Source: Escherichia coli
Lineage (GTDB): Bacteria > Pseudomonadota > Gammaproteobacteria > Enterobacterales > Enterobacteriaceae
Length of the DNA stretch: 64,000 bases
Direction: 5' to 3' (one strand)
NCBI RefSeq assembly: GCF_003334355.1
Contig: NZ_QOWP01000020.1
Under the pieces are notes generated by a model. That model did not search any database and had not been told where the DNA came from. It was given only the letters and a program-made list of their open reading frames with translations. The translations under genes were made by a program, and so were the position numbers. Position 1 is the first letter of the stretch; the number at the start of each line of letters is the position of its first letter. Shown piece after piece: positions 1 through 55,709 of the stretch.

Positions 1-1
1 G

Positions 2-619: not shown

Positions 620-663
620 TGTTTGAAACGGATGATTGGCGATGCGTATCATAAGTTACGTAT

Positions 664-700
664 GTCCGCTTCTGGCACAAAGCAGACGCCCACTCTCACG
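664..700. repeat. Imperfect ~37-bp hairpin-containing repeat, copy A (GTCCGCT-TCTGGCACAA-AGCAGAC)
   Basis: About 28/38 identity to copy B at 4337-4373; 7-bp arms with a conserved TGGCACAAAGC core. Read directly. Confidence 0.5.
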
Positions 701-749
701 CGAATGCTTTGCCCTTGACTTGCCAACAACCGTATCGCTTGCTCCGCAA

Positions 750-2027: not shown

Positions 2028-2052
2028 TCTGCATTCCCTCATATTGCAGCCG

Positions 2053-2081
2053 GGATAAATAAATGCCGCCTCTGTGGCGGC
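2053..2081 (-). terminator. Candidate intrinsic terminator/attenuator between the BCCT gene and the DUF2254 gene
   Basis: GCCGCC-N5-GGCGGC hairpin (2065-2081) followed on the minus strand by AUUUAUUUAU, starting about 10 nt after the BCCT stop. Confidence 0.4.
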
Positions 2082-2090
2082 ATGTTGCTG

Positions 2091-4094: not shown

Positions 4095-4336
4095 TTATTC
4101 CATTAATTAAATCCGCACTGGATAGAAGGTACTACCTCTCACAGAGTAGCAAAGTTCAACTGGCTATGCGGGGTTAATCGGAATGCATGGTGGAATGAGT
4201 GCCGATACAAATCATCCTATATTCTAAGGAGTTTTAAGTTACTCAGCCTGCCAATTACTGGGGCATTTAATTTGTATGATCTGTATCAAAGCTGGGATAT
4301 AAGTTAAGTGAAGTATATTAGGCACGAATTACCAGC

Positions 4337-4373
4337 GTCTGCTCTTGGCACAAAGCGGACAACCACGCTAGCT
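4337..4373. repeat. Imperfect ~37-bp hairpin-containing repeat, copy B (GTCTGCT-CTTGGCACAA-AGCGGAC)
   Basis: Pairs with copy A at 664-700; the two copies bracket the BCCT-DUF2254 gene pair. Confidence 0.5.
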
Positions 4374-4428
4374 CTACCCTGTGCCACAAAATGTCAATTT
4401 GCATCTGAACTAATGCACTTTAATCTCG

Positions 4429-4851
4429 TCACTTCAATAAATACCGAACATCCCCCTGATAAAACGACAATATGCGCTGCATAACTTCGCTCTTCCGGCA
4501 CTCGCGACAGATTATGTTTAGGCGACTGTCGTAGCGACGTATTTCTCCGTCAGGTAATGACCAGATAAGGTCCGGATCAACCACAACCGGTTTCTTCAGC
4601 TTTGCCCTCGATAATTTTTTGCGGGCATTTTGCCAGTCTTTACGAGCCTGTTCAGACGGGAATAACCCGTAGCCAGAATTGTATACATCGCCACTGGCAA
4701 CCAGCTCTCTGGCCAGAACGCTCATCAGATATCTTGTTGCCCCAGTTTTAGCTTCCAGTTGTCGTAACGTCTCGCGCCCACTCTGGCGTACGAGTTCAAG
4801 AACCTGCCCTTTAATTTTTTCCCGCTCTTCTTGTGTAAAAACTTTTGCCAC
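4429..4851 (-). CDS. Hypothetical prophage protein, 140 aa, basic, possible winged-helix segment
   Basis: ORF directly downstream of the ydaU-like gene; no Walker A motif, so not the DnaC-like ydaV expected at this position in K-12 Rac. No family recognised. Confidence 0.45.
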   Translation of the reverse strand: MAKVFTQEEREKIKGQVLELVRQSGRETLRQLEAKTGATRYLMSVLARELVASGDVYNSGYGLFPSEQARKDWQNARKKLSRAKLKKPVVVDPDLIWSLPDGEIRRYDSRLNIICRECRKSEVMQRILSFYQGDVRYLLK

Positions 4852-4891
4852 AAGCCCTCCTGAAAATTACCTCATGACCAGAAATTAACAC

Positions 4892-5968
4892 TTACCCCCT
4901 GAAGCCCGGCGGAATTTCGTTATCCGGTTCAGAAATATGATTCACACAACGCTGGTTGTTCGTGCCGCTTACCGGGAGCAACCAGGGGTTCTCAAAATTC
5001 CGGTCCGGTCCAAAAAACGTCGTCGCTCGCTGAACAAATTCCGTTCCCGTTTTCCCGGTAGCCGCCAAGTATCTTGCGTAACGCCTCACGCCATCCAGCA
5101 TGGCCTCTGGTGGCACCCCCTCGCGTAATCTGGCCTTCCAGGCACTGAAAGCGGATTTCTTCGGGTTTGCCCCAGCACGCAACGGGTACTCCCGCCAGAC
5201 CTGTTCGAACACATCCGGATAATCCACTCGTCCCACAGACTGCCCGGTGTTTTCCGGGACTACCCGATCGGCTTCCCGCTGAATGGCGGAATCGGCTTCA
5301 GGCTGCTGCAGTTGGTGTGATTGCTCCGCCCTTGCGGTCATCACCTGCTGCACAGCGCCCGAATCGGCTTTCAGCGCATACGCTGAATCGGCTTCCGGTG
5401 TCGTGCCTGCTGGCTGACCAAGATTGACGGTCTGAACATCCCCTGCCTGGTTCGTGGCGTTTTTTACGCCATGGACCATAGTGTTTTGATCTTCTTGATC
5501 TGTATCTTTATCTGTATCTTTATCTGTCGTGACTCGTCGTGACATGTGCGTGACATTTCGTGACGCGCCGTGACAATCGCCATTTTGTTCCCGCTTTCTT
5601 TCCCTCTCTCGCTGCGCCCTCTTGCGCTCTGCAGGAGATTTTGCGGTTTGCGAAATATTGCCGTTGTCCTCTTTAAGCACCTGGCGTTTTTCCCATCCAG
5701 TGATTAAATCACCATCAAGTACCCGCCCCTGCATCGTCTGCAAAATTGAATCAATTACCTCTTCTGTCACGTCGAGCGCACTTGCCAAATCTTCTGTCGT
5801 GACATCAATGTGACCTCGCGTGACATTTCGTGACGCGCTCACCAGGAGGTGGATATACACTGCCATCACTGTTGCAATTGGCTGTCCTGACACCCTGGCA
5901 ATTGTTCGCCACTTAGGGTCATTTGGCATGTCATGCCATAATCTGAGCCAGGCGTTAGCCATACTCAC
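4892..5968 (-). CDS. ydaU: YdaU-like prophage replication protein (DUF1376-like N-terminus, DnaT-like C-terminus, repeat-rich acidic linker)
   Basis: 358-aa ORF next to ydaT as in K-12 Rac; contains internal DNA direct repeats. Longer than the 285 aa I recall for K-12 YdaU, so treated as ydaU-like. Confidence 0.55.
   Translation of the reverse strand: MSMANAWLRLWHDMPNDPKWRTIARVSGQPIATVMAVYIHLLVSASRNVTRGHIDVTTEDLASALDVTEEVIDSILQTMQGRVLDGDLITGWEKRQVLKEDNGNISQTAKSPAERKRAQRERERKREQNGDCHGASRNVTHMSRRVTTDKDTDKDTDQEDQNTMVHGVKNATNQAGDVQTVNLGQPAGTTPEADSAYALKADSGAVQQVMTARAEQSHQLQQPEADSAIQREADRVVPENTGQSVGRVDYPDVFEQVWREYPLRAGANPKKSAFSAWKARLREGVPPEAMLDGVRRYARYLAATGKTGTEFVQRATTFFGPDRNFENPWLLPVSGTNNQRCVNHISEPDNEIPPGFRG
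5526..5576. repeat. Iteron-like cluster 1: five CGTGAC direct repeats at 10-11 bp spacing, preceded by an AT-rich TATCTT/TATCTG repeat tract (5489-5527)
   Basis: CGTGAC at 5528, 5538, 5549, 5559, 5569; read directly. Confidence 0.6.
5797..5836. repeat. Iteron-like cluster 2: four (C/T)GTGAC direct repeats at 10-11 bp spacing, plus an inverted GTCACG at 5767-5772
   Basis: Repeats at 5798, 5809, 5819, 5829; the 19-mer GCGTGACATTTCGTGACGCG is shared with cluster 1. Confidence 0.6.
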
Positions 5969-6033
5969 CTCTTTTGATACCGAATCTTTTTACTCACAAA
6001 TTGCCGGAAGTGATCCGGTATGAATATTGCGCG

Positions 6034-6459
6034 TCAATGCACAGCCACAATATTTCCTGCAGGGCCACCACGATTCATCTGGTTGAAACCAGCGATCGCC
6101 ACTGCGACAAAATCATCAGCGTCTCTCACCAGTCGTTCCCGCGTCTCCACTAGTTCCCGAAAATAGGCTGAGCTATGGCTGCGCATTCGGGCCACCAGCA
6201 GAGGTGGCATTGCTTTTTCGATAGCTGGTAACAACGCCTGAATTTTTTCAACTGCATCAGGGGTGTCTTTCTCTACCCAGCGGAAAATTTTCTGGGTATT
6301 GCGAGCCAGGGCTTCCGGATGGCTGTCGTCATACAGTTCTGGGAACGTCATACCCAGTTCAAAATAAGCCCTGGTTATTTCAGCTGCCGGAACTTTTTCA
6401 CCGTCCGGATGCGCCCAGGCATTCATCGCCATGCGGATGTGTTCATGCTTGATTTTCAT
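6034..6459 (-). CDS. ydaT: Rac prophage YdaT-like protein (toxic when derepressed)
   Basis: 141-aa ORF at the K-12 ydaT position, overlapping the upstream ydaS by 17 bp. Confidence 0.65.
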   Translation of the reverse strand: MKIKHEHIRMAMNAWAHPDGEKVPAAEITRAYFELGMTFPELYDDSHPEALARNTQKIFRWVEKDTPDAVEKIQALLPAIEKAMPPLLVARMRSHSSAYFRELVETRERLVRDADDFVAVAIAGFNQMNRGGPAGNIVAVH

Positions 6460-6724
6460 GAATCAAGCTCCTAGAAAGTGGTTGTGTTAACATTTTGGTA
6501 TCTTCCAGCTCGGGCCAAATATTCATCCAATCAAAAGGCCTTAGTTGCTGACGTGTAACTTCACCATTACTGGCTCGCTCAATAAGGACACATAACGATG
6601 CCCCTAACACTTGACCTTTACTCAATGCCTTTCTTAGATAACCGATGCTGGTACCACACTCGCATGCAAACATACGCTGTTCATCTGACGAAAGAGAATT
6701 GAGAAATATTCTTAATTCTTCCAT
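6443..6724 (-). CDS. ydaS: Rac prophage YdaS-like HTH protein
   Basis: 93-aa ORF divergent from racR, first gene of the ydaS-ydaT pair. Confidence 0.6.
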   Translation of the reverse strand: MEELRIFLNSLSSDEQRMFACECGTSIGYLRKALSKGQVLGASLCVLIERASNGEVTRQQLRPFDWMNIWPELEDTKMLTQPLSRSLIHENQA

Positions 6725-6752
6725 AGCTACTCCTTAGTAAACACAGCAAAGA

Positions 6753-6828
6753 ATACCCATAGGTAAACAAAAGTCAATACCCACAGGTTGTTTACCTTGC
6801 AGTAATCGCATCTATTATTTACCTATGG
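6753..6828. promoter_or_regulatory. Divergent racR / ydaS-ydaT control region with repeated ATACCCATAGGTA-type operator half-sites
   Basis: ATACCCATAGGTAAAC (6753-6768), TACCCACAGGTTGTTTACC (6778-6796) and its inverted copy TATTTACCTATGG (6816-6828, overlapping the racR start). Confidence 0.5.
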
Positions 6829-7244
6829 ACAAATATGAATTTAGACGACAGCAACTCATCAAAATTCGTGATGAGAAATGCGATGGTAAAGCGGTTAACG
6901 TGGCCAGAAAGATCGGGCGCGAGCCTTCTTATGTATCAAGAATGTTGTACCCAGAGGGGAAAAAGGGAAAAAAACGGATCGCTGATGATATGGTGGAGAT
7001 TATCGAAGAGTCCTTTGGGTTACCCCGGGGATGGATGGATGGTATCGTTTCATCATCAACGAACACAGCCTCCAGTTATGAAACAAGGGTTCTAACGCCA
7101 CGACAACGTATTTTTTTAGATCTCTTAGACGAACTGCCAGAAAGTGAAGCGGATAACTTATTAAAAACTCTTGAAGAGAAAAAACAGTATTACAATATGA
7201 TCTACGAAGAAATCCGTAAAAAGAAAGCACAAAACGCATCATAG
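6825..7244 (+). CDS. racR: RacR-like prophage repressor (XRE/HTH-like)
   Basis: 139-aa ORF divergent from ydaS-ydaT, at the K-12 racR position; no in-frame upstream start before the stop at 6738. Confidence 0.6.
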   Translation: MDKYEFRRQQLIKIRDEKCDGKAVNVARKIGREPSYVSRMLYPEGKKGKKRIADDMVEIIEESFGLPRGWMDGIVSSSTNTASSYETRVLTPRQRIFLDLLDELPESEADNLLKTLEEKKQYYNMIYEEIRKKKAQNAS

Positions 7245-7285
7245 CTCACCAAACAACTAGTCACCAGTTAAGACACCGTAAAAAG

Positions 7286-7324
7286 TTACCCATGGGTATT
7301 TACTTTTTAAATACCTATGGGTAT
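7286..7324. promoter_or_regulatory. Operator-like palindromes downstream of racR and upstream of ydaG-ydaF
   Basis: Perfect 12-bp palindrome TACCCATGGGTA (7287-7298) and 14-bp near-palindrome ATACCTATGGGTAT (7311-7324), same motif family as the racR upstream sites. Confidence 0.5.
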
Positions 7325-7498
7325 CCTTCTTTTCATACCAACCCACCCCGCCCCACAGAATGCAGGGCAATACTTCGAGTTACCAGGCAGTGGTCAGGGG
7401 TTAAGTAGCCAGCCCGAGGCGTAAGAACATGACGGCGGGATTCAAATTTTGCAGTGCAGCAGTTAGTTCCGCCACCCGGCGTTAAGGGGAGAGATAAG

Positions 7499-13027: not shown

Positions 13028-13222
13028 ATGAGATATGACAATGTTAAACCATGTCCATTTTGTGGTTGTCCATCAGTAACGGTGAAAGCCATTTCAGGAT
13101 ATTACCGAGCGAAGTGTAACGGATGCGAATCCCGAACCGGTTATGGTGGAAGTGAAAAAGAAGCACTCGAAAGATGGAATAAACGAACCACTGGAAATAA
13201 TAATGGAGGTGTTCATGTATAA
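13028..13222 (+). CDS. ralR: RalR (Lar), restriction alleviation protein and type I TA toxin
   Basis: 64-aa product MRYDNVKPCPFCGC... from an internal ATG of the track ORF. Confidence 0.8.
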   Translation: MRYDNVKPCPFCGCPSVTVKAISGYYRAKCNGCESRTGYGGSEKEALERWNKRTTGNNNGGVHV

Positions 13223-13424
13223 AATTACCGCCACTATTGAAAAGGAAGGTGGCACTCCTACTAACTGGACAAGATATTCAAAATCTAAACTAACGAAATC
13301 AGAATGCGAAAAAATGCTCTCAGGTAAAAAAGAAGCAGGCGTTTCCAGAGAGCAGAAAGTAAAACTGATAAATTTTAATTGCGAGAAACTTCAGTCCTCG
13401 AGAATTGCATTGTATTCAAATTAA
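13215..13424 (+). CDS. ydaC: YdaC
   Basis: 69-aa product MYKITATIEKEGG... with a GGAGG RBS; overlaps the ralR stop. Confidence 0.75.
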   Translation: MYKITATIEKEGGTPTNWTRYSKSKLTKSECEKMLSGKKEAGVSREQKVKLINFNCEKLQSSRIALYSN

Positions 13425-17704: not shown

Positions 17705-17826
17705 AAAAAAAAGCCGACTCATCAAAGTCGGCGTCGTACGAATCAATTGTGCTATGCAGTAATTCAAAAAAGGAAGTAAGACAATATGGAGCGCAACGCC
17801 CATCGCTTGACGTTGCATTCACCTGC
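17705..17826 (-). ncRNA. fnrS: FnrS small RNA (FNR-activated)
   Basis: Reverse complement reads GCAGGTGAATGCAACGTCAAGCGATGGGCG...GCCGACTTTGATGAGTCGGCTTTTTTTT, matching recalled FnrS including its terminator. Confidence 0.85.
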
Positions 17827-21203: not shown

Positions 21204-21298
21204 ACCGGCGCAGAGGAGACAATGCCGGATTTAAGACGCGGATGCACTGCTGTGTGTACTGTAGAGTCTGGCGGATGTCGACAGACTCTATTTTTTTA
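21204..21298 (+). ncRNA. mcaS: McaS (IsrA) small RNA
   Basis: ACCGGCGCAGAGGAGACAATGCCGGATTTAAGACGCGGATGCACTGCTGTGTGTACTGTAGAGTCTGGCGGATGTCGACAGACTCTATTTTTTT, matching recalled McaS with its terminator; lies in the abgR-smrA intergenic region. Confidence 0.8.
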
Positions 21299-21305
21299 TG
21301 CAGTT

Positions 21306-29587: not shown

Positions 29588-29830
29588 GATGTAATCCTTG
29601 TGCAGACAAATTTCTTGTTACCTAAACGTAACAATACCATGACATTTCACCGTTGTCTGCTCTGAAAACCTCACCTCTTAGCTGGATTTACAATCAACGC
29701 ATTGATTAGTTAGCTAATGTTGCTACTTCCTTCCCTGACTATTGATGATCTGAATGAATTGTCGCGGTAAAATAGCCCCGCCAGGGGTTTCCGGCATGAC
29801 GACAATTATCTGGAGGAGCCTGATAAAACA

Positions 29831-41791: not shown

Positions 41792-42790
41792 ATGTCCCCT
41801 ACTATTTATGATATTGCCAGGGTTGCAGGCGTATCAAAATCCACCGTATCACGCGTGCTGAATAAGCAAACTAATATCTCCCCGGAAGCGCGCGAAAAAG
41901 TGTTACGGGCCATTGAAGAATTACAGTATCAGCCAAACAAGCTGGCCCGCGCACTGACCTCTTCGGGTTTTGATGCCATTATGGTGATTTCTACCCGTTC
42001 GACCAAAACTACGGCGGGTAATCCGTTTTTCTCTGAAGTTTTGCATGCCATCACCGCCAAAGCTGAAGAAGAAGGTTTCGACGTGATATTACAAACGTCG
42101 CACAATCCGGCAGAAGATCTGCAAAAATGCGAAAGCAAAATTAAGCAGAAAATGATTAAAGGCATTATTATGCTCAGTTCGCCAGCGGATGAGTCATTTT
42201 TTGCCCAACTCGATAAATATGATATTCCGGTGGTGGTGATTGGCAAAGTTGAAGGTCAATATGCCCATGTTTATTCTGTCGATACCGATAATTTTGGCGA
42301 CAGCATTGCGTTGACCGATGCATTAATTGAAAGTGGGCATCAAAATATTGCCTGCCTGCATGCTCCGCTTGATGTCCATGTTTCGGTTGATCGCGTTAAT
42401 GGTTATAAGCAGAGCCTGGCTGCGCATAATATTGCAGTGCGTGATGAATGGATTGTTGATGGCGGTTATACCCATGAAATTGCATTAAAAGCAGCACGGC
42501 AATTATTAAGCCAGTCACCGTTGCCTGAGGCGGTGTTTGCCACTGACAGCCTGAAATTAATGAGCATTTATCGTGCGGCAGCAGAGAAAAATATTGCTAT
42601 TCCGCAGCAGTTAGCGGTGGTGGGTTATAGCAATGAAACGCTGTCATTTATTTTAACGCCTGCACCGGGCGGCATCGATGTTCCGACGCAGGAGTTAGGT
42701 CAACAAAGCTGCGAGTTATTATTCAGCTTAATTTCTGGAAAACCGTCACCACAGAATATTACCGTTGCCACGCATATGACGCTGAAATAA
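41792..42790 (+). CDS. ycjW: LacI-family repressor YcjW
   Basis: 332 aa. Confidence 0.9.
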
Positions 42791-42900: not shown

Positions 42901-43806
42901 TCAGAACGAGTAATTTACGCCGACACCTGCATAATGGAATTTATCACTGTCGCCTTCGTCGTGATCCTGCCACTCAAACGCGTATTCCAGCGAAACGGAA
43001 AGTCCGTTCTGGAAATCATAACCGTAAAATAAACCTACACGGTTAAAATCATGGCCTTCACGTTCAATATCATCCTGCCAGTCCCAGTTACTCCAGCGAT
43101 CCAGCCCAATGCGCGTATACGGCGTCACCGAGTGGTTGCCGAGCGTCAGCGGCAAATAGGCGCGAATTTCTTGCGTGGAAAACTCACCGTTATTGCGGCT
43201 GTCGTCCATATTGAAGCCGCGCTCGAGATAATAGTTCACTCGCAAGGCAACCGTTTCGTTGAAGGTATATTGCAGACCTGTTTCCGTTTCGACACGGGTA
43301 TCAGCGTAACCGGTAGTGTTCAGATCGTTGGCAAATTTATACATCGACAACCAACCGTTGAAACGTAAATCGTCAGTCAGTTTCACATCCCAGTCTGGCG
43401 CGATTTTCCAGCGCTGCATATTCGCCGTGTCTTTACCCGGTTCATCAACGTAGTGATAACCATAATTACGGAAACCGCCGGTCAGGCCGAAACTGAAATC
43501 ATCGTTTTCGAGGAACTGATAATGCACCTCCAGCTCCGGGCGATCAAACCACGTTCCACGTTTACCCGCGCTATAATCTACCGGCCCTTCCTGATAATAG
43601 GCCAGAGCAATTCTCCACGGCCCGTTGGCGGCATTAAAATAGACTGAAGGCTCCGCCAGCCCATCCATATCTTCGCCATAACCCTCGACGTTTTCTATTT
43701 CGTACATCGCGCCGATATTAAAGTGCCAGTCGTTCCTTTCCTCGGCCTGTGCGCAGGCCATTCCCGCACACATCACCAGTGCGGTACAGGGTAATAACTT
43801 TTTCAT
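42901..43806 (-). CDS. ompG: Outer membrane porin OmpG
   Basis: 301 aa; signal peptide and C-terminal ...NYSF. Confidence 0.9.
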   Translation of the reverse strand: MKKLLPCTALVMCAGMACAQAEERNDWHFNIGAMYEIENVEGYGEDMDGLAEPSVYFNAANGPWRIALAYYQEGPVDYSAGKRGTWFDRPELEVHYQFLENDDFSFGLTGGFRNYGYHYVDEPGKDTANMQRWKIAPDWDVKLTDDLRFNGWLSMYKFANDLNTTGYADTRVETETGLQYTFNETVALRVNYYLERGFNMDDSRNNGEFSTQEIRAYLPLTLGNHSVTPYTRIGLDRWSNWDWQDDIEREGHDFNRVGLFYGYDFQNGLSVSLEYAFEWQDHDEGDSDKFHYAGVGVNYSF

Positions 43807-43850
43807 TATTGTTCCTTGTATTATCCTGGGGGAATGTCTTCCCCCTGTAT

Positions 43851-44933
43851 TTAGCGAATTGCTATTTCCGTTTCTGCATCAAAGAAATGACATTTCGTCA
43901 TATCAAAATGAATAGTGATATTTTCTCCTGCATGATAATCATTTAACGCACCAGCACGGACCACTAACTCGTGCCCCCCAACCGTGGTGTAGAGCATAAA
44001 TTCCGCACCGGTTAATTCTGCCACGCTAATTTTGGCGGAAATGTTATTTTCCTCTTGCGCGTCCGGATGAATATCTTCCGGTCGTATTCCCATCACGATG
44101 GGCTTATGCAAACTTTCCTGTGTTTTCAGAACCGCTAATTTCTCTTCGGGAATGGTTAATTTAAGCGTTTCCGTAACGAATTTATCGCCATCGATCGTGC
44201 CGCGAATAAAATTCATCGCTGGTGATCCAATAAATCCGGAAACAAACATATTCGCGGGTTGGTTATAAACGGTTTTCGGCGCACCTACTTGCTGAACAAT
44301 CCCGTCTTTCATAATCACAATCCGCGTCGCCATGGTCATCGCTTCGGTCTGATCGTGGGTCACGTAGATCATGGTGGTGTTCAGTTTCTGATGCAGCTTG
44401 CTGATCTCTGCGCGCATTTGCACGCGCAGCTTGGCATCAAGGTTAGAGAGCGGTTCATCCATTAAAAACACGCCCGCTTCGCGTACAATCGCCCGCCCAA
44501 GCGCCACTCGCTGACGTTGCCCGCCGGAAAGCGCCCCCGGCTTACGTTTCAGGTACTCACGCAGGCCGAGAATTTGCGCCGCCCAGTTCACCCGCTCATC
44601 AATCACCTCTTTGGCGATTTTTTGCATCTTCAGACCAAACGCCATGTTGTCGTAAACCGTCATATGCGGATACAACGCGTAGTTCTGGAACACCATCGCT
44701 ATATTGCGTGCTTTGGCTGGAACGTCATTCATTCGTTTGCCGTCGATCAACAGATCGCCGCCGCTGATCTCCTCAAGCCCGGCAATCATGCGCAGGGTGG
44801 TCGACTTACCGCAGCCCGACGGGCCGACAAACACGATGAACTCTTTATCGGCAATTTCCAGGTTGAAGTCCTTCACCACATGCACCTGGTTATCGTAGAT
44901 TTTTTGAATATGTTGTAACGAAAGCTGAGCCAT
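43851..44933 (-). CDS. ycjV: ABC transporter ATP-binding protein YcjV (intact)
   Basis: 360-aa uninterrupted ORF with Walker A (GPSGCGKST), signature (LSGGQRQR) and Walker B motifs. Confidence 0.9.
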   Translation of the reverse strand: MAQLSLQHIQKIYDNQVHVVKDFNLEIADKEFIVFVGPSGCGKSTTLRMIAGLEEISGGDLLIDGKRMNDVPAKARNIAMVFQNYALYPHMTVYDNMAFGLKMQKIAKEVIDERVNWAAQILGLREYLKRKPGALSGGQRQRVALGRAIVREAGVFLMDEPLSNLDAKLRVQMRAEISKLHQKLNTTMIYVTHDQTEAMTMATRIVIMKDGIVQQVGAPKTVYNQPANMFVSGFIGSPAMNFIRGTIDGDKFVTETLKLTIPEEKLAVLKTQESLHKPIVMGIRPEDIHPDAQEENNISAKISVAELTGAEFMLYTTVGGHELVVRAGALNDYHAGENITIHFDMTKCHFFDAETEIAIR

Positions 44934-44946
44934 GTTGATTCCTTTG

Positions 44947-45606
44947 CTATACGTTTTGCCAGAAGGCCGATAACCGCGGCCAGGTGAGTGATTCCGTTGA
45001 AGGCAACAGTAATTGCGCCCCGGTTAAGCCCGCGCCGATCCCCACCGAGCGCATACCGCTGGCGTTAATGGCGTCAATGCCCGCCTGCGCATCTTCAATG
45101 CCGATACATGCCTGCGGCGGCACGCCCAGCCCTGCACAGGCGGCGAGAAAGATTTCCGGGTCCGGTTTCGAGTTTTTAAGTTGGGAAGCATCCGCGCAGA
45201 AGGTGAAAAACTCGCGCAGCTCCAGCGCCGCTAAAATCGTCGGCGCATTCAGGGAGACAGAAGCCAGCCCAACCGAGATCTGCTGTGCACGGAGATCTGC
45301 CAGCAAAGAGCGAATGCCGGGTAGAACAGCGTTGACCGTCAACTCGCGTAGTGAGTGGACATAGAGCAGATTTTTGCGATACGCCAGTTGCGCCCTCTCC
45401 TGCGAGTTAAAGTCGCCCTCTTTGCCCCCGTGTTGCAGAATGCGCCGCAGAGACTCATCGCGGCTGATCCCTTTTAGGGATTCGTTAAACTGCGCATCAA
45501 TGCTGATGCCAATTTCAGCGGCAATCTGCTGCCACGCCTGGAAATGCAGATGCGCGGTATCGGTGATTACACCATCCAGATCGAAAATTACCCCTTGCAG
45601 TTTCAT
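44947..45606 (-). CDS. ycjU: Beta-phosphoglucomutase YcjU
   Basis: 219 aa; HAD DxDG motif. Confidence 0.9.
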
Positions 45607-47870
45607 TCATCCTCCTGATGTTTGGTAGCGGTCCCATTGAAGGGCAAAATAAAATCACCCAAACAGAAAACAGATTCTTCAGCCACGGTTATAAGCTGAC
45701 CGTTCAAACGCAGTGAAACGGGCGCAGAAGTTCGAATCGCAATACGCTGCGCGTCAAGAGTGACCTGTAATTCGCAGCCCTGCCAGAACAGAGGGAAAGA
45801 CAACTGTTGCCACTGCTCAGGTAACGCCGGATTGAGATGCAATTCACCGTCACGCACGCTCACCCCGGCAAAACCCTGAATCGCCCCCAGCCAGATAGCG
45901 CCAGTTGCGGCAGCATGGATACCATCATCACAACTATGCGGATCAGCACCAAGATCGATTTCAGTCCCCTCGCGCCAGAACTGATAACTTTGGGTCAGCA
46001 GGCCACAGCGTGCGGCAACAATGCCGTGGATTGCTTTACTTAATGACGAGTCGTGAATAGTGCGCGGTTCATAAAATTGCAGATTGGCAAGACACGATGC
46101 CGCTGAGAACTGCTCCGGCAGCATGTAATTGAGCATCACCACATCAGCTTGTTTGAGGATCTGCATCTCGTTCACTTCTGCGCGTGAATAATCCAGCAGT
46201 ATGGTTTGCTTCCCCGCCGCCGCTTTGTATTTCGCCAGATTAATCGCCGGCTTAGCCATAAACGAATCATCCTGCGGCAAAACGCCGTCGGGCTGAATTT
46301 CTGGCATCCATAGCTCTTTGAGGAACATTTCGGCGCGATGGATAAACGCATCGTCGCTACAGCCGAACTGGCGGGCAATATTCAGCGCCTGTTGAACGTT
46401 GTAGCGGGCCATATAGCTGGTGTATGCATTATTATTGACATGTTCGGTATATTCGTCTGGCCCAATAACATCATGAATTTCCAGACGATCGTTAACTCTT
46501 ACCGCGCGGCTAATCCAGAACTTTGCCGTCTCCAGAAGTAGCGCCATGCCTTCATGCGCAATGAAACTTTCATCCCCCGTGGTCTGCCAGTATTGAATAA
46601 CCGCCCAGGCGATATCGGCCACCAGATGATGTTCCGCCTGCGCCGAGGCCACTTTTTGCCGCAGCCCGGTGCGAATGTTAATGGCGGCAAATTCCGGCGT
46701 CTCTTCTTCGCCGCTGCGCGCGCTTTCCCACGGAAATAGCGCGCCCTGCCAGCCGTTGCGTCGCGCTTTCTCCTGCGCGCCTGGCAAGTTGTGCCAGCGA
46801 TAACGCAGTAAACTTCGGGCAACCGTCGGATCGCTAAACAGATGAAACGGTAACAAAAATACTTCTGTATCCCAGAAAACGTGGCCTTTGTAGCCTTCGC
46901 CGGTTAAGCCTTTTGCCGCAATGCTGCTGCGCTCGTCGTGGGCAGGCGTCATGATGCGCAGATGATAAAGCGCATAATCTAACGCTTGCTGATCGTGCGC
47001 TTCGCCGCCATTTACCGTGATACGACGTTTCTGCCACCATTGACGCCAGTTTTCTGTTGATGCTGCAAGAAGTTGGTCGTAACTCTGCTGCGCGCACATT
47101 TCAAGCTGGCGAAGCGACGCGCTGCCCCACTCGTCTAAAGCAGCTTGCCTGTCATCCCGCCAGTCGATCCACACCAGTTTTTGCAACGTCATTGTCTCGC
47201 CTGCATGAAGCTGCGCACTGGTATGTTGCAGTAAACGGCGCTCTTTGGCGGTATAGCATTGCTGCACATCACCGCTCACCTTACAGCAACAGCTGATGGC
47301 CACATCACTGCGTCCATCCTGGGTGGTGTAGCTCCCCTGCATCAGATGCTGACCAAACACCCGCACCTGGGTTTCGTCGAGATGTTGGCGACCGTGATTG
47401 GTTTGCGTGGCGTCAATGCCTGTTGAAATCAGCACTGACGCGTCGGCGTCCAGTGGCGTAATAGTGATTTCCAGCGCAATGAGCGGCAGTTGGTCTGCCG
47501 AAACAAAGCGACGGCTGGCGATGGTGTAACCTGAGCCGTTGCTGGTACGCCAGACAACATTGCGGCGTAATTCGCCACTGGCAAAGTCAAGCTCACGCTG
47601 CCAGGCTTCGTGGGATAACGAGAAAACCTCACCATTTATGGCAATCTCCATCCCCACGACATCAGGCAGGTTCACCAGTTCGTTGATTTCACCTTTTCCC
47701 GCCCGATGATACAGCCCCGCCAGATACATCCCTCGCGTCTGGCGCGTGTAATCTTCTTCATGGCTGGCGCGAAGCCCAAGATAGCCGTTCCCCTGCGCCA
47801 TCAGCGATGCATACTTGTTCAGGGTATGCTGGCTGAAATGGGGTTCTGATAACGTTACTGGCCTGGTCAT
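45603..47870 (-). CDS. ycjT: Kojibiose phosphorylase YcjT (GH65)
   Basis: 755 aa. Confidence 0.9.
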
Positions 47871-48922
47871 AATTCCACACGCGTCCCTGTTTCTGCGGAT
47901 TGATACAACGCCGCCACCAGTTGCTGGATGATGTACCCCTGCTCGGCGTCGGCTATCATCACGGGCTTGCCCTGTACGTGATTGATAAAGGCTTCCATGC
48001 TGCGCAAATGGCGGTTGTCGTCTGCCATTTCCCGTTGCATCAGCGTCATTAATTCACCGTTGTTATCGGTGTAGATATGTGCTGGAAACAGCGTCGCACC
48101 AGCTTTATCACCACAAAAGCTGACGTTCATAATCGACTGTTCGCGGATGTTGAGTGCAAATGACGTTTCCAGCCACAGAATGCCGCCGTTATGAAATTCA
48201 ATGGTGCCAAACAGCGAATCTTCGACGCTGTAAGTTGCCGGATCCCACTCACCAAATTGACCACAGCTCTTTTGCGTGCCGATCTTTTGAAAGCTATGCG
48301 CATTCACGCTTTTCACCGCCGGAAAGCCCAGCACATACATCGCAGCATCCAGCATATGAATGCCGATGTCGATCAGCGGGCCACCACCCTGCAGTTCTTT
48401 ATTGGTAAAGACACCCCAGCCGGGAACGCCGCAGCGACGCAGGGCGCGGGCGGTGGTAACGTAAATCTCTCCCAAAACGCCGTTGGTCACCTGTTCACGC
48501 AGCTGTTGCGTATCGAGCGCAAAACGATGGTGAAAGTCGTAGGCCAGCACCTTGCCCAGTTTGCGCGCGGTATCGCACATTTCCCGCGCCTGTTCTGGCG
48601 TCATGGCGGGCGGTTTTTCGCACATCACATGGCAGCCCGCTTCCAGTGCCATCAGGGTATGTTCGTAATGAAAACGGTTAGGTGAGCAGACGCTAACCAC
48701 ATCAGGTTTCACCGCCAGCAGCATGGCCTGCGGATCGTCCCACACGGATGCATTCCCGTATTTTTCTGCCAGCGCCTGCGCCTGGGAAAGGCGGCTGTCA
48801 CAGACAGCCACCAGTTCCAGATCGTTGCGGGTGCAGTAGTACGAAGCATGAACCTTATCCGCCACCTGGCCTGCGCCTATTATCGCGACCCGCAGCGGAG
48901 AGCTTGTCATTGCACTTTTCAC
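47867..48922 (-). CDS. ycjS: Gfo/Idh/MocA-family sugar 3-dehydrogenase YcjS
   Basis: 351 aa. Confidence 0.9.
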   Translation of the reverse strand: MKSAMTSSPLRVAIIGAGQVADKVHASYYCTRNDLELVAVCDSRLSQAQALAEKYGNASVWDDPQAMLLAVKPDVVSVCSPNRFHYEHTLMALEAGCHVMCEKPPAMTPEQAREMCDTARKLGKVLAYDFHHRFALDTQQLREQVTNGVLGEIYVTTARALRRCGVPGWGVFTNKELQGGGPLIDIGIHMLDAAMYVLGFPAVKSVNAHSFQKIGTQKSCGQFGEWDPATYSVEDSLFGTIEFHNGGILWLETSFALNIREQSIMNVSFCGDKAGATLFPAHIYTDNNGELMTLMQREMADDNRHLRSMEAFINHVQGKPVMIADAEQGYIIQQLVAALYQSAETGTRVEL

Positions 48923-48931
48923 AAAGACCTC

Positions 48932-49720
48932 TTAGCAGGTACGCAACCAGGCCAACGAATCACGGTACGCCTGGGCAGGATCTTCCGCCCGGATACGCCC
49001 TTCGTACACTACATAGCCCTGATAGTTATCCGCGCGCAGCTGTTCAAACAGCGCGTGGAAATCCAGGGTGCCGCTGCCCGGCTGGTAGCGATGGTTATCC
49101 GCAATATGCACATGACCGAGCAGGTCGCGGTTGTCATGCAGCGCCTGCGCCAGGTTATCTTCTTCGATATTCATGTGATAGAAATCGCCGATAATCTGTA
49201 CATGTTTAAGATCGTTTTCGACGATGTAACGGCGGGCATCGGCGAGGGTGTTGATCATATGATCCTGATAGCGGTTTAACGGTTCGAGATACACCACGGT
49301 TCCGGTACGCGCGGCGACCTGTTCCAGTACGCGCAGGGAATCACTCACCATTTTGCGGTCGCCGTCCAGGCTACGCGGCGAGGTCATCGGCGGTAAGCGG
49401 AAGGTAAACATGCCCCACGCAGCCGGAACGACGATGCCTTTACCGCCCACTTCTGCCAGCGCTTCGAGAATGCGCTCGATCTGCTTTAAGCCATTAAGAC
49501 GACGCTCTTCGATAAAGTCGCCAATCCATCCGTCATAGCCACCGCAGGCGGTGGTCACCGGTAAACCGGTTTCTTTGATCGCCGCTTTGACTTCTTCGAT
49601 GTTGTTAACCAGCAGTTTGCCGTCAATCTCAAAACCATCGAAGTCCATCTCTTTGATATAACGAAATTTCTCCAGAATGTTTTCCGGAAAGAACGCCTGA
49701 TTCTGTGTGCCGATTTTCAT
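48932..49720 (-). CDS. ycjR: Sugar-phosphate isomerase/epimerase (TIM-barrel) YcjR
   Basis: 262-aa product; start chosen by RBS spacing. Confidence 0.85.
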   Translation of the reverse strand: MKIGTQNQAFFPENILEKFRYIKEMDFDGFEIDGKLLVNNIEEVKAAIKETGLPVTTACGGYDGWIGDFIEERRLNGLKQIERILEALAEVGGKGIVVPAAWGMFTFRLPPMTSPRSLDGDRKMVSDSLRVLEQVAARTGTVVYLEPLNRYQDHMINTLADARRYIVENDLKHVQIIGDFYHMNIEEDNLAQALHDNRDLLGHVHIADNHRYQPGSGTLDFHALFEQLRADNYQGYVVYEGRIRAEDPAQAYRDSLAWLRTC

Positions 49721-49738: not shown

Positions 49739-50791
49739 TTAAAACGTAACGCCCATTTTGATGCTCTGTTCCGGATGCTGGTCGACATACTGCATATAGC
49801 TTTCCGGGCTATTGGCAAAGGTCACCACCGGGTCGATTAAATCTTCGCAATTGAGATAACCGTTCATCAGCAGTTCCCAACAGGTTTCTTCAATACGCTT
49901 GCGGCTCCAGCGCGGATAATCCGGGTTCGGTTCGCTGCACGCGCGAGAGAAGACAATTTTGGCGTTATTGAAATGCGCTTCGCGTCCGAGGTTAAAACCT
50001 TCGGCAAACGGCTTGGCAAACGCGACATAGGAGATGGTGCCGCCATAAGCCAGACCGCGGAGCGCCGATTGCAGCGCGTCGGCGTAGCCGCTGGTTTCGA
50101 TAATCACATCGGCACCCTGCTTGCCGGTCAGCGTTTTGATCTCTTTACCTACATCAGTGCCGATGGGGTTAAGGCAGAAATCCGCGCCGTGGCGACGGGC
50201 AATATCACAGCGATGGGCGATAGGATCGACGCCAATCACCACAGAAGCGCCAGCGCGTTTAGCCAGTTGGATGGCAATTTGACCGATTGCGCCAAGCCCT
50301 ACCACCACCACAAAATCCCCTACGCGCACGTTGGCATCGCGCACGCCGCTCATGGCAAACTGCGCCGGGTCGTAGCAGACGGCGTTTTTCCAGGAGCTGC
50401 CTTGCGGCATTTTGCGCAGCTTGTAGTTATTCACTGCGTTAATGATGACCGTCTCGGAGAGCGGGCCGTAGCCGCATACGCTGTCGCCCACCGCGTAGTC
50501 GGTAACGTCGCTGCCGCACTCGATAATGTCGCCAACCACCATGTTGCCAAGCTGGAATTTGCCAAACTCAATGCCGCGCGGCGCATCTGCCGGACGCGGA
50601 GTGAACATCTGCCATTCGCCGTTAAAGTCTTCATCAATAAACGGGCTGGCGGCGCGGAAGTCGACCACTTCCGTTCCGTGTTTCGGTGCGCCGAAACGCA
50701 CGCGGATCTTCACTTCATTAGCTAAAATCGCCCGATCTTCATACTCAACCAGCGCAGCAACACGCGGTGCTGTGGCTACTAACTTTTTCAT
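49739..50791 (-). CDS. ycjQ: Zn-dependent alcohol/sugar dehydrogenase YcjQ
   Basis: 350 aa. Confidence 0.9.
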   Translation of the reverse strand: MKKLVATAPRVAALVEYEDRAILANEVKIRVRFGAPKHGTEVVDFRAASPFIDEDFNGEWQMFTPRPADAPRGIEFGKFQLGNMVVGDIIECGSDVTDYAVGDSVCGYGPLSETVIINAVNNYKLRKMPQGSSWKNAVCYDPAQFAMSGVRDANVRVGDFVVVVGLGAIGQIAIQLAKRAGASVVIGVDPIAHRCDIARRHGADFCLNPIGTDVGKEIKTLTGKQGADVIIETSGYADALQSALRGLAYGGTISYVAFAKPFAEGFNLGREAHFNNAKIVFSRACSEPNPDYPRWSRKRIEETCWELLMNGYLNCEDLIDPVVTFANSPESYMQYVDQHPEQSIKMGVTF

Positions 50792-50821: not shown

Positions 50822-51664
50822 TTAGCCCTTCACGCCACCGGCGGTCAAACCACTCTTAATAAAACGTTCCGAAAGCGCATACATAATCACCACCGGCAAT
50901 GCGGTCACCAGTGAGGCCGCCATCATCCGTCCCCAGATGTAATCTGGCGTACTGAACAGCGCGTTCAGGCCCACCGGTAAGGTGAAATTGCTGGCGCTGG
51001 AGAGGAAAATCGACGCAAACAGATAGTCGTTCCACGCCACCATAAAGCAGTAGACGAACACGGATATCAGCCCGGACATCGCCAACGGCACGGTGATGCG
51101 GAAGATAATTTGCAGACGGTTGAGGCCATCCATCATCGCCGCTTCTTCGATCTCATCGGGGATGGTGTCGAAGTAGCTTTTCAGCATAAACACGGCGGTG
51201 GGCAGAGTTTGCGTCACCATGGTGATGATCAGCGCCATCTCAGTGTCGTAAATGCCAAGCGCGGTGATGATTTTGAAAAGCGGCACCACCAGCAAAATGC
51301 CAGAGAACATATACACCGTGTAAAAGCTGGCGTTGATGGTCATCCGACCTTTAAAGCGCAGGCGGGAAAGCGCGTAAGCCCCAAGAATGCCGAGGAATAC
51401 CGCCACCACGGATGAAACCACAGACACCACCAGACTGTTACGGAAGTAGTCGACAAACGGGAAAATCATCGGGTTAAAAATGTCGACGTAATGCTCCAGC
51501 GTCCACTGCTGCGGCAGCAGCGTAGGATGCAGTGAGATCGCCTCTTTCGCGCCCTTGAACGAGGTCATCAGCATCACAAAAAATGGAAACAGCGTGATGA
51601 TGAGAAACAGCGCCAGCCCGCAGTAAAAACCGATGCGACTGAGTGTGCGTTTATTTGTTGCCAT
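50822..51664 (-). CDS. ycjP: ABC sugar transporter permease YcjP
   Basis: 280 aa. Confidence 0.9.
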   Translation of the reverse strand: MATNKRTLSRIGFYCGLALFLIITLFPFFVMLMTSFKGAKEAISLHPTLLPQQWTLEHYVDIFNPMIFPFVDYFRNSLVVSVVSSVVAVFLGILGAYALSRLRFKGRMTINASFYTVYMFSGILLVVPLFKIITALGIYDTEMALIITMVTQTLPTAVFMLKSYFDTIPDEIEEAAMMDGLNRLQIIFRITVPLAMSGLISVFVYCFMVAWNDYLFASIFLSSASNFTLPVGLNALFSTPDYIWGRMMAASLVTALPVVIMYALSERFIKSGLTAGGVKG

Positions 51665-52532
51665 TGAGGTTCACCCGTTTCCTGGTCAGCAGAATGACAG
51701 CGAAAATAATGATGAAGAGCACCACCGAGATCGCCGCCGCTTTTCCTAAATCATTAAAGGCAAAGGCGGTTTTGTAGAGATATACACCGAGAATATCGAC
51801 CTTGGTCGTCAGCAAATAAACATCCGCGAACATGTAGAACATCCAGATGGTGCGCAGTGTCACCACCGTCGCCAGGACCGGCATAATTGCGGGCAGCGTG
51901 ACGATACGAAACCGTTGCCAGGCATTAGCGCCATCCATCTCTGCCGCTTCGTACAGCGATTTGTCGATGGTCTGCAAAATCGCCAGAAACGAGATAAAGG
52001 CATACGGGAAGTAGCGCCAGATGGCGAACAGCACCACCAGCACAAAGCTACTGCCCGGATTATCGAACCACAGCGGTGCCTGCTCATAGAGATGCAGAAG
52101 ATCGACGCCGAGGTAGTTAACAATGCCGTAGCCGTTGTTGAACATGTATTTCCAGGCGAACACCAGCGAAATGGACGGCGTTACGTAGGAGAGGATCACC
52201 AGCGAACGCGCGGTTTTGCGCAGGCGGAACTCGCGGTTGAAAAACATCGCCACCGCCAGCCCGAGCACGGTGCTGCCCGCCACCACCAGCGCGGTATACC
52301 AGACCGTCATCCACAGCGAATGCCAGAAGCCGGGATCGGAGAGGATACGCACATAGTTGCTCACCCCAACAAACGTTGACTCGATGTTGGGATTGAGCGG
52401 CAGACGTAAAAAACTGATTTCGATATTCGACACCATCGGCCACGCCACCAGACCGCCCAGCAGTAATAAGCTGGGCGCGAGAAGCAGCAGCGCAAAGGGC
52501 ATATCGGAACGACCTGAAAAAAGTCTGTTCAT
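51651..52532 (-). CDS. ycjO: ABC sugar transporter permease YcjO
   Basis: 293 aa. Confidence 0.9.
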   Translation of the reverse strand: MNRLFSGRSDMPFALLLLAPSLLLLGGLVAWPMVSNIEISFLRLPLNPNIESTFVGVSNYVRILSDPGFWHSLWMTVWYTALVVAGSTVLGLAVAMFFNREFRLRKTARSLVILSYVTPSISLVFAWKYMFNNGYGIVNYLGVDLLHLYEQAPLWFDNPGSSFVLVVLFAIWRYFPYAFISFLAILQTIDKSLYEAAEMDGANAWQRFRIVTLPAIMPVLATVVTLRTIWMFYMFADVYLLTTKVDILGVYLYKTAFAFNDLGKAAAISVVLFIIIFAVILLTRKRVNLNGNK

Positions 52533-52552: not shown

Positions 52553-53845
52553 TTAGTGCTGTTCGATCAGTTCATCCAGTTTTTTCTGGCTCGCTTGCAG
52601 CGTAGTAGAGAGATCGGCTTTACCCACGGTGACGTTATGCACCATTGAACTCACCACGCCAGAACCCGTCACATCACCCATGCGGGTAAAGTTTTTATCC
52701 CCTACTGCGCCAAAAACCTGAATATTTGGCAGTTCACCGATTAGCTGATTCGGTAGTTCACCCAGCGCCTTAATAACGTCGTTGTCTTTCCAGGTGGCGG
52801 TAGTCACCACCGCTTTATTCACCGGCAGCGCAGCACCTGGCGACATCATCACCCAGTCGGCAATGTTGTCTGCCTGCTCCATAAAGGTGACAAATTTTTC
52901 TGCTGCTTCCGTCTCTTCGGTCTTTTGCCCGGCGGTAATGGTCAGCGAGGTCAACATGCCGTAGACCGCAGAGTTTTTCTCGGTTGGCACCACGAAACCG
53001 ACGTTTTTCGGGTCGCCTTCTTTAATCACAGCCGGAAGGATATAGGTGGAGTAAATCGCCATCGGCGCGGTGCCGTTCATAAAGGCGTCTTTCACTTCCA
53101 TGATGTCGTTAGAACCCGGCATAGTGTTGGCAGCAAGGTCGCGGTAATAGGTCAGTGCCTGCATCATCTCTGGTGTATCAAGGGTGATTTTGCCTTCGGC
53201 GTTAAAGACGTTAGCCTGGTTGGATAACGCAAACTGGGAGAAGGATTGTTCCGTCAACACGCTTTCTGCTGTAGGCAGCGCAATGCCGTATTTTTTATTC
53301 GCCGGGTCATTCAGTTTCTGTGCAACGTCCAGCAGCTGTTGCCAGTTTTTCGGCTCCTCAAGCCCCGCTTTTGCCAGCACATCTTTGCGATACCAGATAC
53401 CGCCAATCCAGGCGCTGACAGGAACACCGGTCCATGCGCTACCATCTTCGGTACGCACAATACGCAGTACGCCATCGTAAAACGCGCCTTCACCAACGTT
53501 GCTGATGACTGTGGCAACCGCTTTGCGATCGATAAGCTGCTCTTTGTCCATCACTTTGGCGTAGTCATGGCTGGTTTCGATCACTTCCGGCAGCGAACCG
53601 CTACGTGAAAGAGTAATGACTTTAGTGTTATAGGCATCTTCTTCCACGGGCACTTGCTTAACGGTGATGCCAGGGTTTTCTTTTTCAAAACGGGCAATCA
53701 ATTTACTGATAACGGCCTGGCGCTCCTGCTCCACCGAAGAATGCATAAATTCGATGGATACATTCGTTTTATTTTCTTCTTTACAGCCTGAAATCAGGGC
53801 GCATGAAACCAGTGCTGATAACAGCACGATTTTTGATTTAATCAT
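52553..53845 (-). CDS. ycjN: ABC sugar transporter periplasmic binding protein YcjN
   Basis: 430 aa with lipoprotein-like signal (LISGC). Confidence 0.9.
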   Translation of the reverse strand: MIKSKIVLLSALVSCALISGCKEENKTNVSIEFMHSSVEQERQAVISKLIARFEKENPGITVKQVPVEEDAYNTKVITLSRSGSLPEVIETSHDYAKVMDKEQLIDRKAVATVISNVGEGAFYDGVLRIVRTEDGSAWTGVPVSAWIGGIWYRKDVLAKAGLEEPKNWQQLLDVAQKLNDPANKKYGIALPTAESVLTEQSFSQFALSNQANVFNAEGKITLDTPEMMQALTYYRDLAANTMPGSNDIMEVKDAFMNGTAPMAIYSTYILPAVIKEGDPKNVGFVVPTEKNSAVYGMLTSLTITAGQKTEETEAAEKFVTFMEQADNIADWVMMSPGAALPVNKAVVTTATWKDNDVIKALGELPNQLIGELPNIQVFGAVGDKNFTRMGDVTGSGVVSSMVHNVTVGKADLSTTLQASQKKLDELIEQH

Positions 53846-53858
53846 GAGATGTTCCTTT

Positions 53859-55538
53859 TTATTTAATCCACATAACCTGCCAGGGGCGCAGCGTTATTTC
53901 ATTACCCAATATATCAACTTCACTAATCAGATCCCGACCATGCAGATTAGTAATATTTACATGCTGAATATTTTTACTGACATTAAACAATCCAGTCAGA
54001 CAATTACCATCAGCGTTACTTCTTTGAATACGCATTACGGATGAATTAATCGTATCAATGGTAAAATTATTATCCGGATGAAACTCGTTATGGCTGCGAC
54101 GAAGTGTAATTAAACGCGACAACTCATGATATACCGCATGCCTTAATGTAGCTTCATCGTTCAGTTCTCGGGTTATCTCTTTACTGTGATATTTTTTACG
54201 GTTAATCGCACGGTTATATCCGAGTTTTTCGACACCTGCGTAATCATTACGCGAGCCAAGAATACTTTGAATATATATCGCTGGCACACCGGGGAAACTT
54301 AACAAAATCGCATGGGCAAGGATAAACCTGGCGCAACGTTCTTCATCGCTACTCTCACGGCGGCTTAACGCATCCATATAGGTCACATTTATTTCATACG
54401 GACTGCGTGTACCGTCGGGATTATTTTTCCAGTTTACTAATGCACCTTCCTGCTGTAACGCCTCGACCAGCTCTAATATTTCGCTTTCAGGCAACAAGCC
54501 CCGTAGCGGGTTTAGCCCGATGCCATCGTGAGAGGCGAGGAAGTTAAACCAGGTGGTGTTGCTGGAAGGTAGTGTCAGGTTTTGCGCCCACGCACAAAGC
54601 GCCTCAACGTTCTGTTTTTGCACCGCATGCAGCACCAGTGGCGGCAGCGAGAACTGGTACACCATATGTGCTTCGTCATCGCCTGCGCCAAAGTAAGCAA
54701 TGTTGTCTTTATGCGGAACATTGGTCTCGGTAATGATCACTGTACCTGGCGCAACGTTATCAATAATCGACCGTAACAGTTTGATAATCAGATGTGTTTT
54801 TTCCAGATGGATGCAGCTTGTTCCCGGCTCTTTCCACATAAAGCCAACGGCATCCAGGCGGACATACTCAGCACCTTTCGCAAAGTAACAGAGTAAAACA
54901 TCCACCATCGCCAGCAACACTTCAGGGCTACGGTAATTCAGGTCAATTTGATCGTCACTAAAGGTGGTCCATAAATGGCGCGTTGAATGATCGCGCATCT
55001 GGAATGGCGTTAATAACGGTAACGCACGCGGGCGAGTGACGGCGCTGAGATCGGTTTGCGGGTCAACGGCAATAAAAAAATCTTCAAAACCTGGATGCTG
55101 TTGTAAATAGTTTTTAAACCATTCACTTTTTGCCGACATATGGTTGCAGACAAAATCAAACATTAAATGACTGCATTCACCGAGTTGCTGAATATCCTGC
55201 CACTCCCCCGCTTCACTGGCGACCTGATGATAATCAATTACCGAAAAGCCATCATCAGATGACCATGGATAAAACGGCAACAAATGAACATGTGAAAAAA
55301 TGCTTTGCAGCCATTGATGGTAAAACTGATTAAATGTGGGTAATGGTTTTAAATCATTGCTGTGAAATTGATCGGCATAGGTAATTAACACGACATCACT
55401 TTCATCCCAGTGTTTTTTACGTCGCTGTGTAATTAATCGTTTCGCACTCTCAAGACGCGTTACAAGTTTCTGTAAATGAGTTGCGGTAAATGTTCCACCG
55501 TAGATTTCGTCCAGGTAATCCGTAATTTTCTGTTTCAT
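53859..55538 (-). CDS. ycjM: GH13 sucrose-phosphorylase-like enzyme YcjM (glucosylglycerate phosphorylase)
   Basis: 559-aa product from MKQKITDYLDE. Confidence 0.9.
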   Translation of the reverse strand: MKQKITDYLDEIYGGTFTATHLQKLVTRLESAKRLITQRRKKHWDESDVVLITYADQFHSNDLKPLPTFNQFYHQWLQSIFSHVHLLPFYPWSSDDGFSVIDYHQVASEAGEWQDIQQLGECSHLMFDFVCNHMSAKSEWFKNYLQQHPGFEDFFIAVDPQTDLSAVTRPRALPLLTPFQMRDHSTRHLWTTFSDDQIDLNYRSPEVLLAMVDVLLCYFAKGAEYVRLDAVGFMWKEPGTSCIHLEKTHLIIKLLRSIIDNVAPGTVIITETNVPHKDNIAYFGAGDDEAHMVYQFSLPPLVLHAVQKQNVEALCAWAQNLTLPSSNTTWFNFLASHDGIGLNPLRGLLPESEILELVEALQQEGALVNWKNNPDGTRSPYEINVTYMDALSRRESSDEERCARFILAHAILLSFPGVPAIYIQSILGSRNDYAGVEKLGYNRAINRKKYHSKEITRELNDEATLRHAVYHELSRLITLRRSHNEFHPDNNFTIDTINSSVMRIQRSNADGNCLTGLFNVSKNIQHVNITNLHGRDLISEVDILGNEITLRPWQVMWIK

Positions 55539-55709
55539 GTTGCCTTTCCGTGGTAGCGGTCCCATGAAACGAGAGACTACTCCGCAGAAAATAAACTGTC
55601 AATTGAGCACAAGGGTTTTAGTCACGCAGGAAATCATTTTTTACCAGGGAAAAAGCGTATTTGTGAGCTGACGCAAATAATCTATGGGGATGTAAATAAG
55701 GTGTGACAG

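Follow-up and report, generated by a model that had tools for sequence, protein, structure and literature searches.

Among the described ATP-binding subunits of sugar ABC importers, those closest to YcjV of Escherichia coli are MsmX of Bacillus subtilis and the MalK and UgpC proteins. MsmX (6yir) has the same architecture as YcjV, a nucleotide-binding domain (NBD) followed by an OB/TOBE domain, and aligns with it end to end (residues 1-360 of YcjV to 1-365 of MsmX) at 64% identity (PMC7658222). MalK (1q12, 2r6g) and UgpC likewise combine a CUT1-type NBD with a C-terminal regulatory domain. The genetic setting of MsmX is different, in that it is an orphan-gene product and a multitask ATPase of several sugar importers, whereas YcjV is encoded together with its own membrane and binding subunits. 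YcjV cannot stand in for MsmX in B. subtilis, where it is no substitute with the partners AraNPQ and GanSPQ; the YcjV protein expressed in that work, WP_000057985.1, accumulates in the host, has been purified and is reported to be ATPase-active (PMC7658222). The failed replacement shows that YcjV has partner specificity and says nothing about its function with YcjO and YcjP (YcjOP).

The operon to which the gene belongs, ycjMNOPQRSTUV-ompG, is repressed by YcjW, and kojibiose frees YcjW from DNA in vitro (PMC6599011). ChIP-seq maps one YcjW peak upstream of ycjM and a second between ycjT and ycjU (PMC6599011). YcjN, the binding protein of the system, is a lipoprotein that is diacylated and falls in the structural class of maltose-binding protein; kojibiose gives no thermal shift with it (PMC11543891). 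According to PMC6599011, strain MG1655 does not grow on minimal medium with kojibiose, and deletion of ycjW does not change this. In metabolic engineering, the K-12 ycjV pseudogene is routinely chosen as a neutral site for integration (PMC10380740). A comparative study found a ycjV-type ABC transporter gene in K-12-like isolates, scored as absent from MG1655 in its virulence-factor screen, and linked that gene to screens for colonisation of the bovine gut in EHEC (PMC8009128).

In the window, the whole 64,000-nucleotide stretch of E. coli DNA that was analysed, the ycjV coding sequence lies on the minus strand at 43851..44933; it starts with ATG and has 360 codons and a stop that the open reading frame list places inside the end coordinate. 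An AAGGA Shine-Dalgarno sequence lies 7 nt 5' of the ATG, and the gap between the ycjU stop and the ycjV start is 13 nt. The product is the predicted ATP-binding subunit of a type I ABC sugar importer, YcjNOP-V. A motif search recovers the ABC motifs in canonical order: Walker A GPSGCGKS (residues 37-44, 44802-44825), the Q-loop VFQ (81-83, with the glutamine at 44685-44687), the signature LSGGQ (135-139, 44517-44531), Walker B VFLMDEP (155-161, 44451-44471), the D-loop SNLD (163-166) and the H-switch VTHD (191-194, 44352-44363), the last just downstream of the ATPase core, and all are on the minus strand. That core is matched by Pfam ABC_tran (PF00005) over residues 21-162 (44448..44873, minus; E 2.6e-31), which together with the six ordered motifs places YcjV among the PF00005 nucleotide-binding subunits. 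It is followed by a MalK-type C-terminal regulatory domain (43881..44228, minus), composed of OB_MalK (236-288, E 6.5e-14) and TOBE_2 (282-351, E 9.8e-10), and this arrangement is that of the MalK/UgpC/MsmX-type (CUT1) proteins. The frame and its motifs are far beyond what a chance ORF would provide, and the earlier note's description of an uninterrupted 360-codon ycjV with all ABC motifs is borne out by the ORF list, the motif search and Pfam. Antisense ORFs within the gene (e.g. 44517-44918 on the plus strand, 133 aa) are supported by nothing and were discarded as shadow ORFs of a conserved gene, and a single-sequence AlphaFold2 model of YcjV was dropped (mean pLDDT 33.5, pTM 0.22).

Within the CUT1 group, YcjV passes the NCBIfam UgpC-subfamily model NF008653 (482.9 bits, cut-off 432), a subfamily model that assigns no substrate, and falls below the MalK equivalog NF008233 (429.1 bits, cut-off 568). 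Of the solved structures, MsmX 6yir matches YcjV best, over residues 1-360 (E 1e-148), and a structure database search aligns E. coli MalK (1q12) to residues 1-353. A pairwise BLASTP comparison with MalK agrees with this match, although its MalK query was an approximate sequence and it carries no weight. On the model scores YcjV is a paralogue of MalK and not MalK proper, and it differs from MalK also in serving another operon. The window protein is RefSeq WP_000057985.1, the YcjV of non-K-12 E. coli, with no difference detected between the two; at the DNA level, the window is identical to the coding sequence so annotated in strain PD007.

The same locus in MG1655 has the same synteny (ycjU - ycjV - ompG - ycjW) and a different coding state. 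In NC_000913.3 it is annotated as two pseudogenes, ycjV (b1318, 1380821-1381789) and ymjB (b4524, 1381789-1381902), and in a second MG1655 record the ycjV CDS is flagged as 'frameshifted', so that the earlier note was right to describe ycjV as a disrupted pseudogene in MG1655. Together ycjV and ymjB span 1082 nt in MG1655 against 1083 nt in the window. A global alignment, which the earlier note had proposed as the check, contains a single indel and no substitutions (1082 of 1083 positions identical); the MG1655 gene is thus not full length and identical but one G short. With this match and its place between ycjU and ompG, the window gene is the orthologue of MG1655 ycjV. From the alignment and the codon context, the indel falls in a six-G run, GGGGGG (CCCCCC on the plus strand), at codons 319-320 (coding positions 955-960; 43974..43979, minus). 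Where the window has six, MG1655 reads GGGGG, and its frame runs into ...TTVGG-TS*, a shortened frame of 322 codons with an out-of-frame tail. Frame analysis shows that codons 321-360 (43854..43973, minus), encoding the 40 C-terminal residues, are out of frame in K-12 and correspond to ymjB. The window gene is free of this K-12 defect, as its frame is open over 360 codons without a frameshift and encodes a single protein of 360 aa.

The 40 residues lost in K-12 make up the second half of TOBE_2 and align with the conserved C-terminus of MsmX (6yir) and of MalK. The C-terminal domain of MalK (1q12) reportedly keeps the dimer together, and by analogy the truncation of YcjV in K-12 is likely to be damaging.

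The remainder of the locus agrees closely with MG1655. From pspE to ycjW (14.1 kb) there are 11 SNPs and the one indel in ycjV, and ycjM, N, O, P, Q, R, S, T and U, ompG and ycjW all have their MG1655 lengths and no internal stops. Gene names and the enzyme roles of YcjT, YcjM, YcjU, YcjQ, YcjR and YcjS follow the MG1655 annotation. The first operon gene is ycjM (53859..55538, minus), an intact glucosylglycerate phosphorylase gene with L219F and P505Q relative to MG1655. The transporter partners of YcjV come next, all intact: the lipoprotein binding protein gene ycjN (52553-53845, minus; T238A) and the membrane subunit genes ycjO (51651-52532) and ycjP (50822-51664), both on the minus strand. 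Together with ycjV, these full-length genes of one operon, which contain no stops, form the gene set of a type I ABC importer. The glucoside/guloside 3-dehydrogenase and epimerase genes ycjQ (49739-50791), ycjR (48932-49720; G26D) and ycjS (47867-48922; I299M) are intact on the minus strand, and are followed by ycjT (45603..47870, minus), encoding kojibiose phosphorylase and differing by one synonymous SNP, and by ycjU (pgmB, 44947..45606, minus), encoding beta-phosphoglucomutase and identical to MG1655. The operon ends in ompG (42901..43806, minus), which encodes a monomeric outer-membrane porin and is also identical. The LacI-type repressor gene of the operon, ycjW (41792..42790, plus), is intact with T230I and R312S. 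The ycjM-V / ompG / ycjW locus is therefore complete, as had been claimed, with MG1655 lengths, no internal stops and an intact ycjV.

A 15-nt sequence, ATGGGACCGCTACCA, is present twice, letter for letter, in the 64 kb of the window, where chance predicts 0.07 occurrences. The copy at 55551..55565 (minus) stands just 5' of the ycjM start codon; the other (45623..45637, minus) is in the 3' end of ycjT, immediately before ycjU, where it would be an internal operator. Both are read as candidate YcjW operators because they stand where ChIP-seq mapped YcjW, a match made by position and not by motif letters. The longest ycjM ORF has 568 aa where the annotation has 559 aa, and its 5' extension overlaps the upstream copy; this overlap favours the annotated, shorter start. 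In the 44-nt spacer between ycjV and ompG, a terminator-like scan finds a GC-rich hairpin, GGGGGAA-nnnn-TTCCCCC (43828..43845), that is not followed by a T-run on the transcribed (minus) strand and that may have a part in the processing or stability of the mRNA; a SNP in its loop (43837) is the sole intergenic SNP of the locus relative to MG1655. Between 42600 and 45700, promoter consensus matches (3 sites, 3.4 expected) are no more frequent than chance predicts, and terminator consensus matches (6 sites, 3.1 expected) are not enriched over shuffled sequences and likewise show nothing beyond chance. An Rfam scan of the whole window gives no RNA family match in the ycj locus.

These components suggest a route for the substrate. 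A sugar, probably an alpha-glucoside, would enter through OmpG and be bound by YcjN, which would deliver it to YcjO/YcjP. A YcjV dimer docked on YcjO/YcjP would hydrolyse ATP and drive import, after which YcjT/YcjU, YcjM and YcjQRS would catabolise the substrate by phosphorolysis or oxidation. The window ycjV is very probably the wild-type, ancestral allele, encoding the NBD of the YcjNOP importer in a YcjW-repressed operon, and the K-12 lineage carries a 1-bp deletion of it. Against this explanation weigh the lack of a thermal shift of YcjN with kojibiose, the failure of YcjV to replace MsmX and, should they affect function, the substitutions relative to K-12 in YcjM, YcjN, YcjR, YcjS and YcjW. 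Judged from the gene sequences, a strain with the intact allele should have a working importer and K-12 may not, and we infer that the window strain may possess a functional kojibiose/glucosylglycerate transporter.

The distribution of the two alleles across the species bears directly on this reading. Among 5426 complete E. coli genomes ycjV is present in 5002, and about 424 give no megablast match to the gene. The alleles were distinguished with probes of 50 nt (six G, G6) and 49 nt (five G, G5), each with 22-nt flanks, such that a run one G short leaves no 28-nt exact seed for megablast. The G6 probe matches 4621 of the 5426 genomes (4429 of them at 99% identity or more), including O157:H7 EDL933, O104:H4, a strain derived from BL21 and isolates taken from many different hosts. 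The G5 probe matches 371, which an even sample down the list of matches indicates to be almost all K-12 laboratory derivatives (MG1655, W3110, C600, MC4100, BW2952, NCM3722, XL1-Blue, J53, RV308 and WG1, which we take to be an early K-12 stock). The exact 360-aa protein is found on at least 1000 contigs in a public collection. Because of the G6 count, the dominance of K-12 among G5 carriers and these contigs, intact ycjV is the ordinary wild-type state, found in about 92% of the complete genomes that carry the gene. K-12 is the exception, and the frameshift is essentially a trait of its lineage.

A few genomes depart from this pattern. The G5 frameshift occurs outside K-12 in strain 95-3192 (NZ_CP027362.1, 5.39 Mb), 15 SNPs from the window allele, and in OkiPb01703 (NZ_AP042616.1, 5.30 Mb), 5 SNPs from it, and both genes are annotated as 'frameshifted'; the G5 probe also matches OkiPb01710 (5.30 Mb) and PJ-T13 (4.94 Mb). 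Either the six-G run has slipped repeatedly or the homopolymer was wrongly assembled in these cases. Conversely, PD007 (NZ_CP120910.1, 569-1651), an MG1655-like strain of 4,641,666 bp from a milk sample, carries G6 and an intact ycjV (WP_000057985.1), and may have reverted, may be a relative of K-12 in which the G was never lost, or may owe its G6 to a polishing artefact. Other forms of disruption are an IS1 inserted within ycjV in CFIAFB20180511 (NZ_CM143727.1) and the retention of only the last 22% of the gene, annotated as 'TOBE domain-containing protein', in DXMF6-3R (NZ_CM139232.1).

The window strain itself is not K-12. Over the 57 kb that they share, its identity to MG1655 is 99.7%, with 85 mismatches over 34 kb, and it is matched best by isolates from poultry, pigs and humans, such as NCTC9080. 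Positions 1-7333 have no counterpart in MG1655 1350000-1437000. Here, and likewise in NCTC9080, what remains of a shortened Rac-like prophage (intR to ydaT-like and DUF977 genes) adjoins genes for a BCCT-family transporter, a DUF2254 protein and a LysR regulator, in place of the right half of the 23-kb Rac of K-12. The IS5F element (insH4) found between ynaI and ynaJ in MG1655 is absent at about 29710-29713, where the two flanks meet and share 4 bp in the BLAST alignment, as they would at a target site that is unoccupied. The Rfam small RNAs RalA (in the Rac remnant), FnrS and McaS are at the positions expected from MG1655 (ranges 13221-13399, 17709-17826 and 21204-21299). That the window is K-12 DNA with a sequencing error is ruled out by the 85 mismatches, the absence of IS5F and the different left end of Rac.

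The alternative that survives best, unlikely as we consider it, is that the intact frame has no bearing on phenotype, since the truncated YcjV would still work, MalK or UgpC would energise YcjOP, or the operon would be silent or its substrate rare. Such neutrality would explain why the frameshift persists in K-12, in which the ATPase core (residues 1-235) is untouched. The score of YcjV above the UgpC-subfamily cut-off and its closeness to MalK also fit, and MalK and UgpC are said to be exchangeable in E. coli. Sharing and exchange of NBDs among sugar importers are documented for MsmX-type ATPases (PMC7658222), and the repression of the operon by YcjW is strong (PMC6599011). Against this, the frameshift removes half of TOBE_2, and the 40 lost residues match conserved strands at the C-terminus of MsmX and MalK. 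More than 4400 genomes, from all major lineages, have kept the frame intact, which speaks for purifying selection on ycjV and against neutrality. The failure of MG1655 to grow on kojibiose even without ycjW, as reported in PMC6599011, also speaks against neutrality and is compatible with a transport defect.

A more far-reaching version of the wild-type reading seems to us quite doubtful. It holds that the loss of the G in K-12 is the real cause of the lack of growth on kojibiose and of the elusive substrate, that wild-type strains such as that of the window would import the native glucoside and grow on it, and that the six-G run is a weak point at which the importer has been inactivated repeatedly and independently in a few other lineages.

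The run could also be a phase-variable contingency tract, at which slipped-strand mispairing toggles the ATPase and K-12 is caught in the off phase, though we regard this as very improbable. G5 does occur on at least three ycjV backgrounds, namely K-12, 95-3192 and OkiPb01703/OkiPb01710 (of which OkiPb01703 is the one compared), and the G6 of the MG1655-like PD007 points the same way. Yet a run of six bases is short for efficient slippage, G5 is found in only about 7% of genomes and nearly all of these have one clonal origin, K-12. Every K-12 subline sampled, including WG1, has G5, PD007 being the sole MG1655-sized genome found with G6, and the rare G5 cases outside K-12 may be assembly errors.

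Finally, an artefact of sequencing or assembly at the homopolymer, whether on the side of the window or of the K-12 reference, can be dismissed almost entirely: such runs are classic error sites, and the G6 of PD007 or the G5 of the few non-K-12 assemblies could each be a polishing error, but G5 recurs in 371 independently sequenced genomes that include the curated NC_000913.3, G6 recurs in 4621, and the window, with its mismatches, missing IS5F and different Rac remnant, is not a mis-sequenced K-12.

The finding of an intact ycjV is correct, and it is also already known and ordinary, in that the K-12 pseudogene stands in the reference annotation and the intact protein has a RefSeq accession and has been purified. 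As a discovery, an intact ycjV matters little, and its practical worth is as a caution. Studies of the ycj genes in K-12, including growth on kojibiose and the phenotypes of YcjN deletion, use a strain whose transporter ATPase is truncated, and the frameshift is not mentioned where K-12 results are interpreted in PMC6599011, PMC11543891 and PMC13053599. It may confound the published negative growth results on kojibiose, and a strain with the intact allele, such as that of the window, or a repaired K-12 would be the better host in which to discover the substrate.
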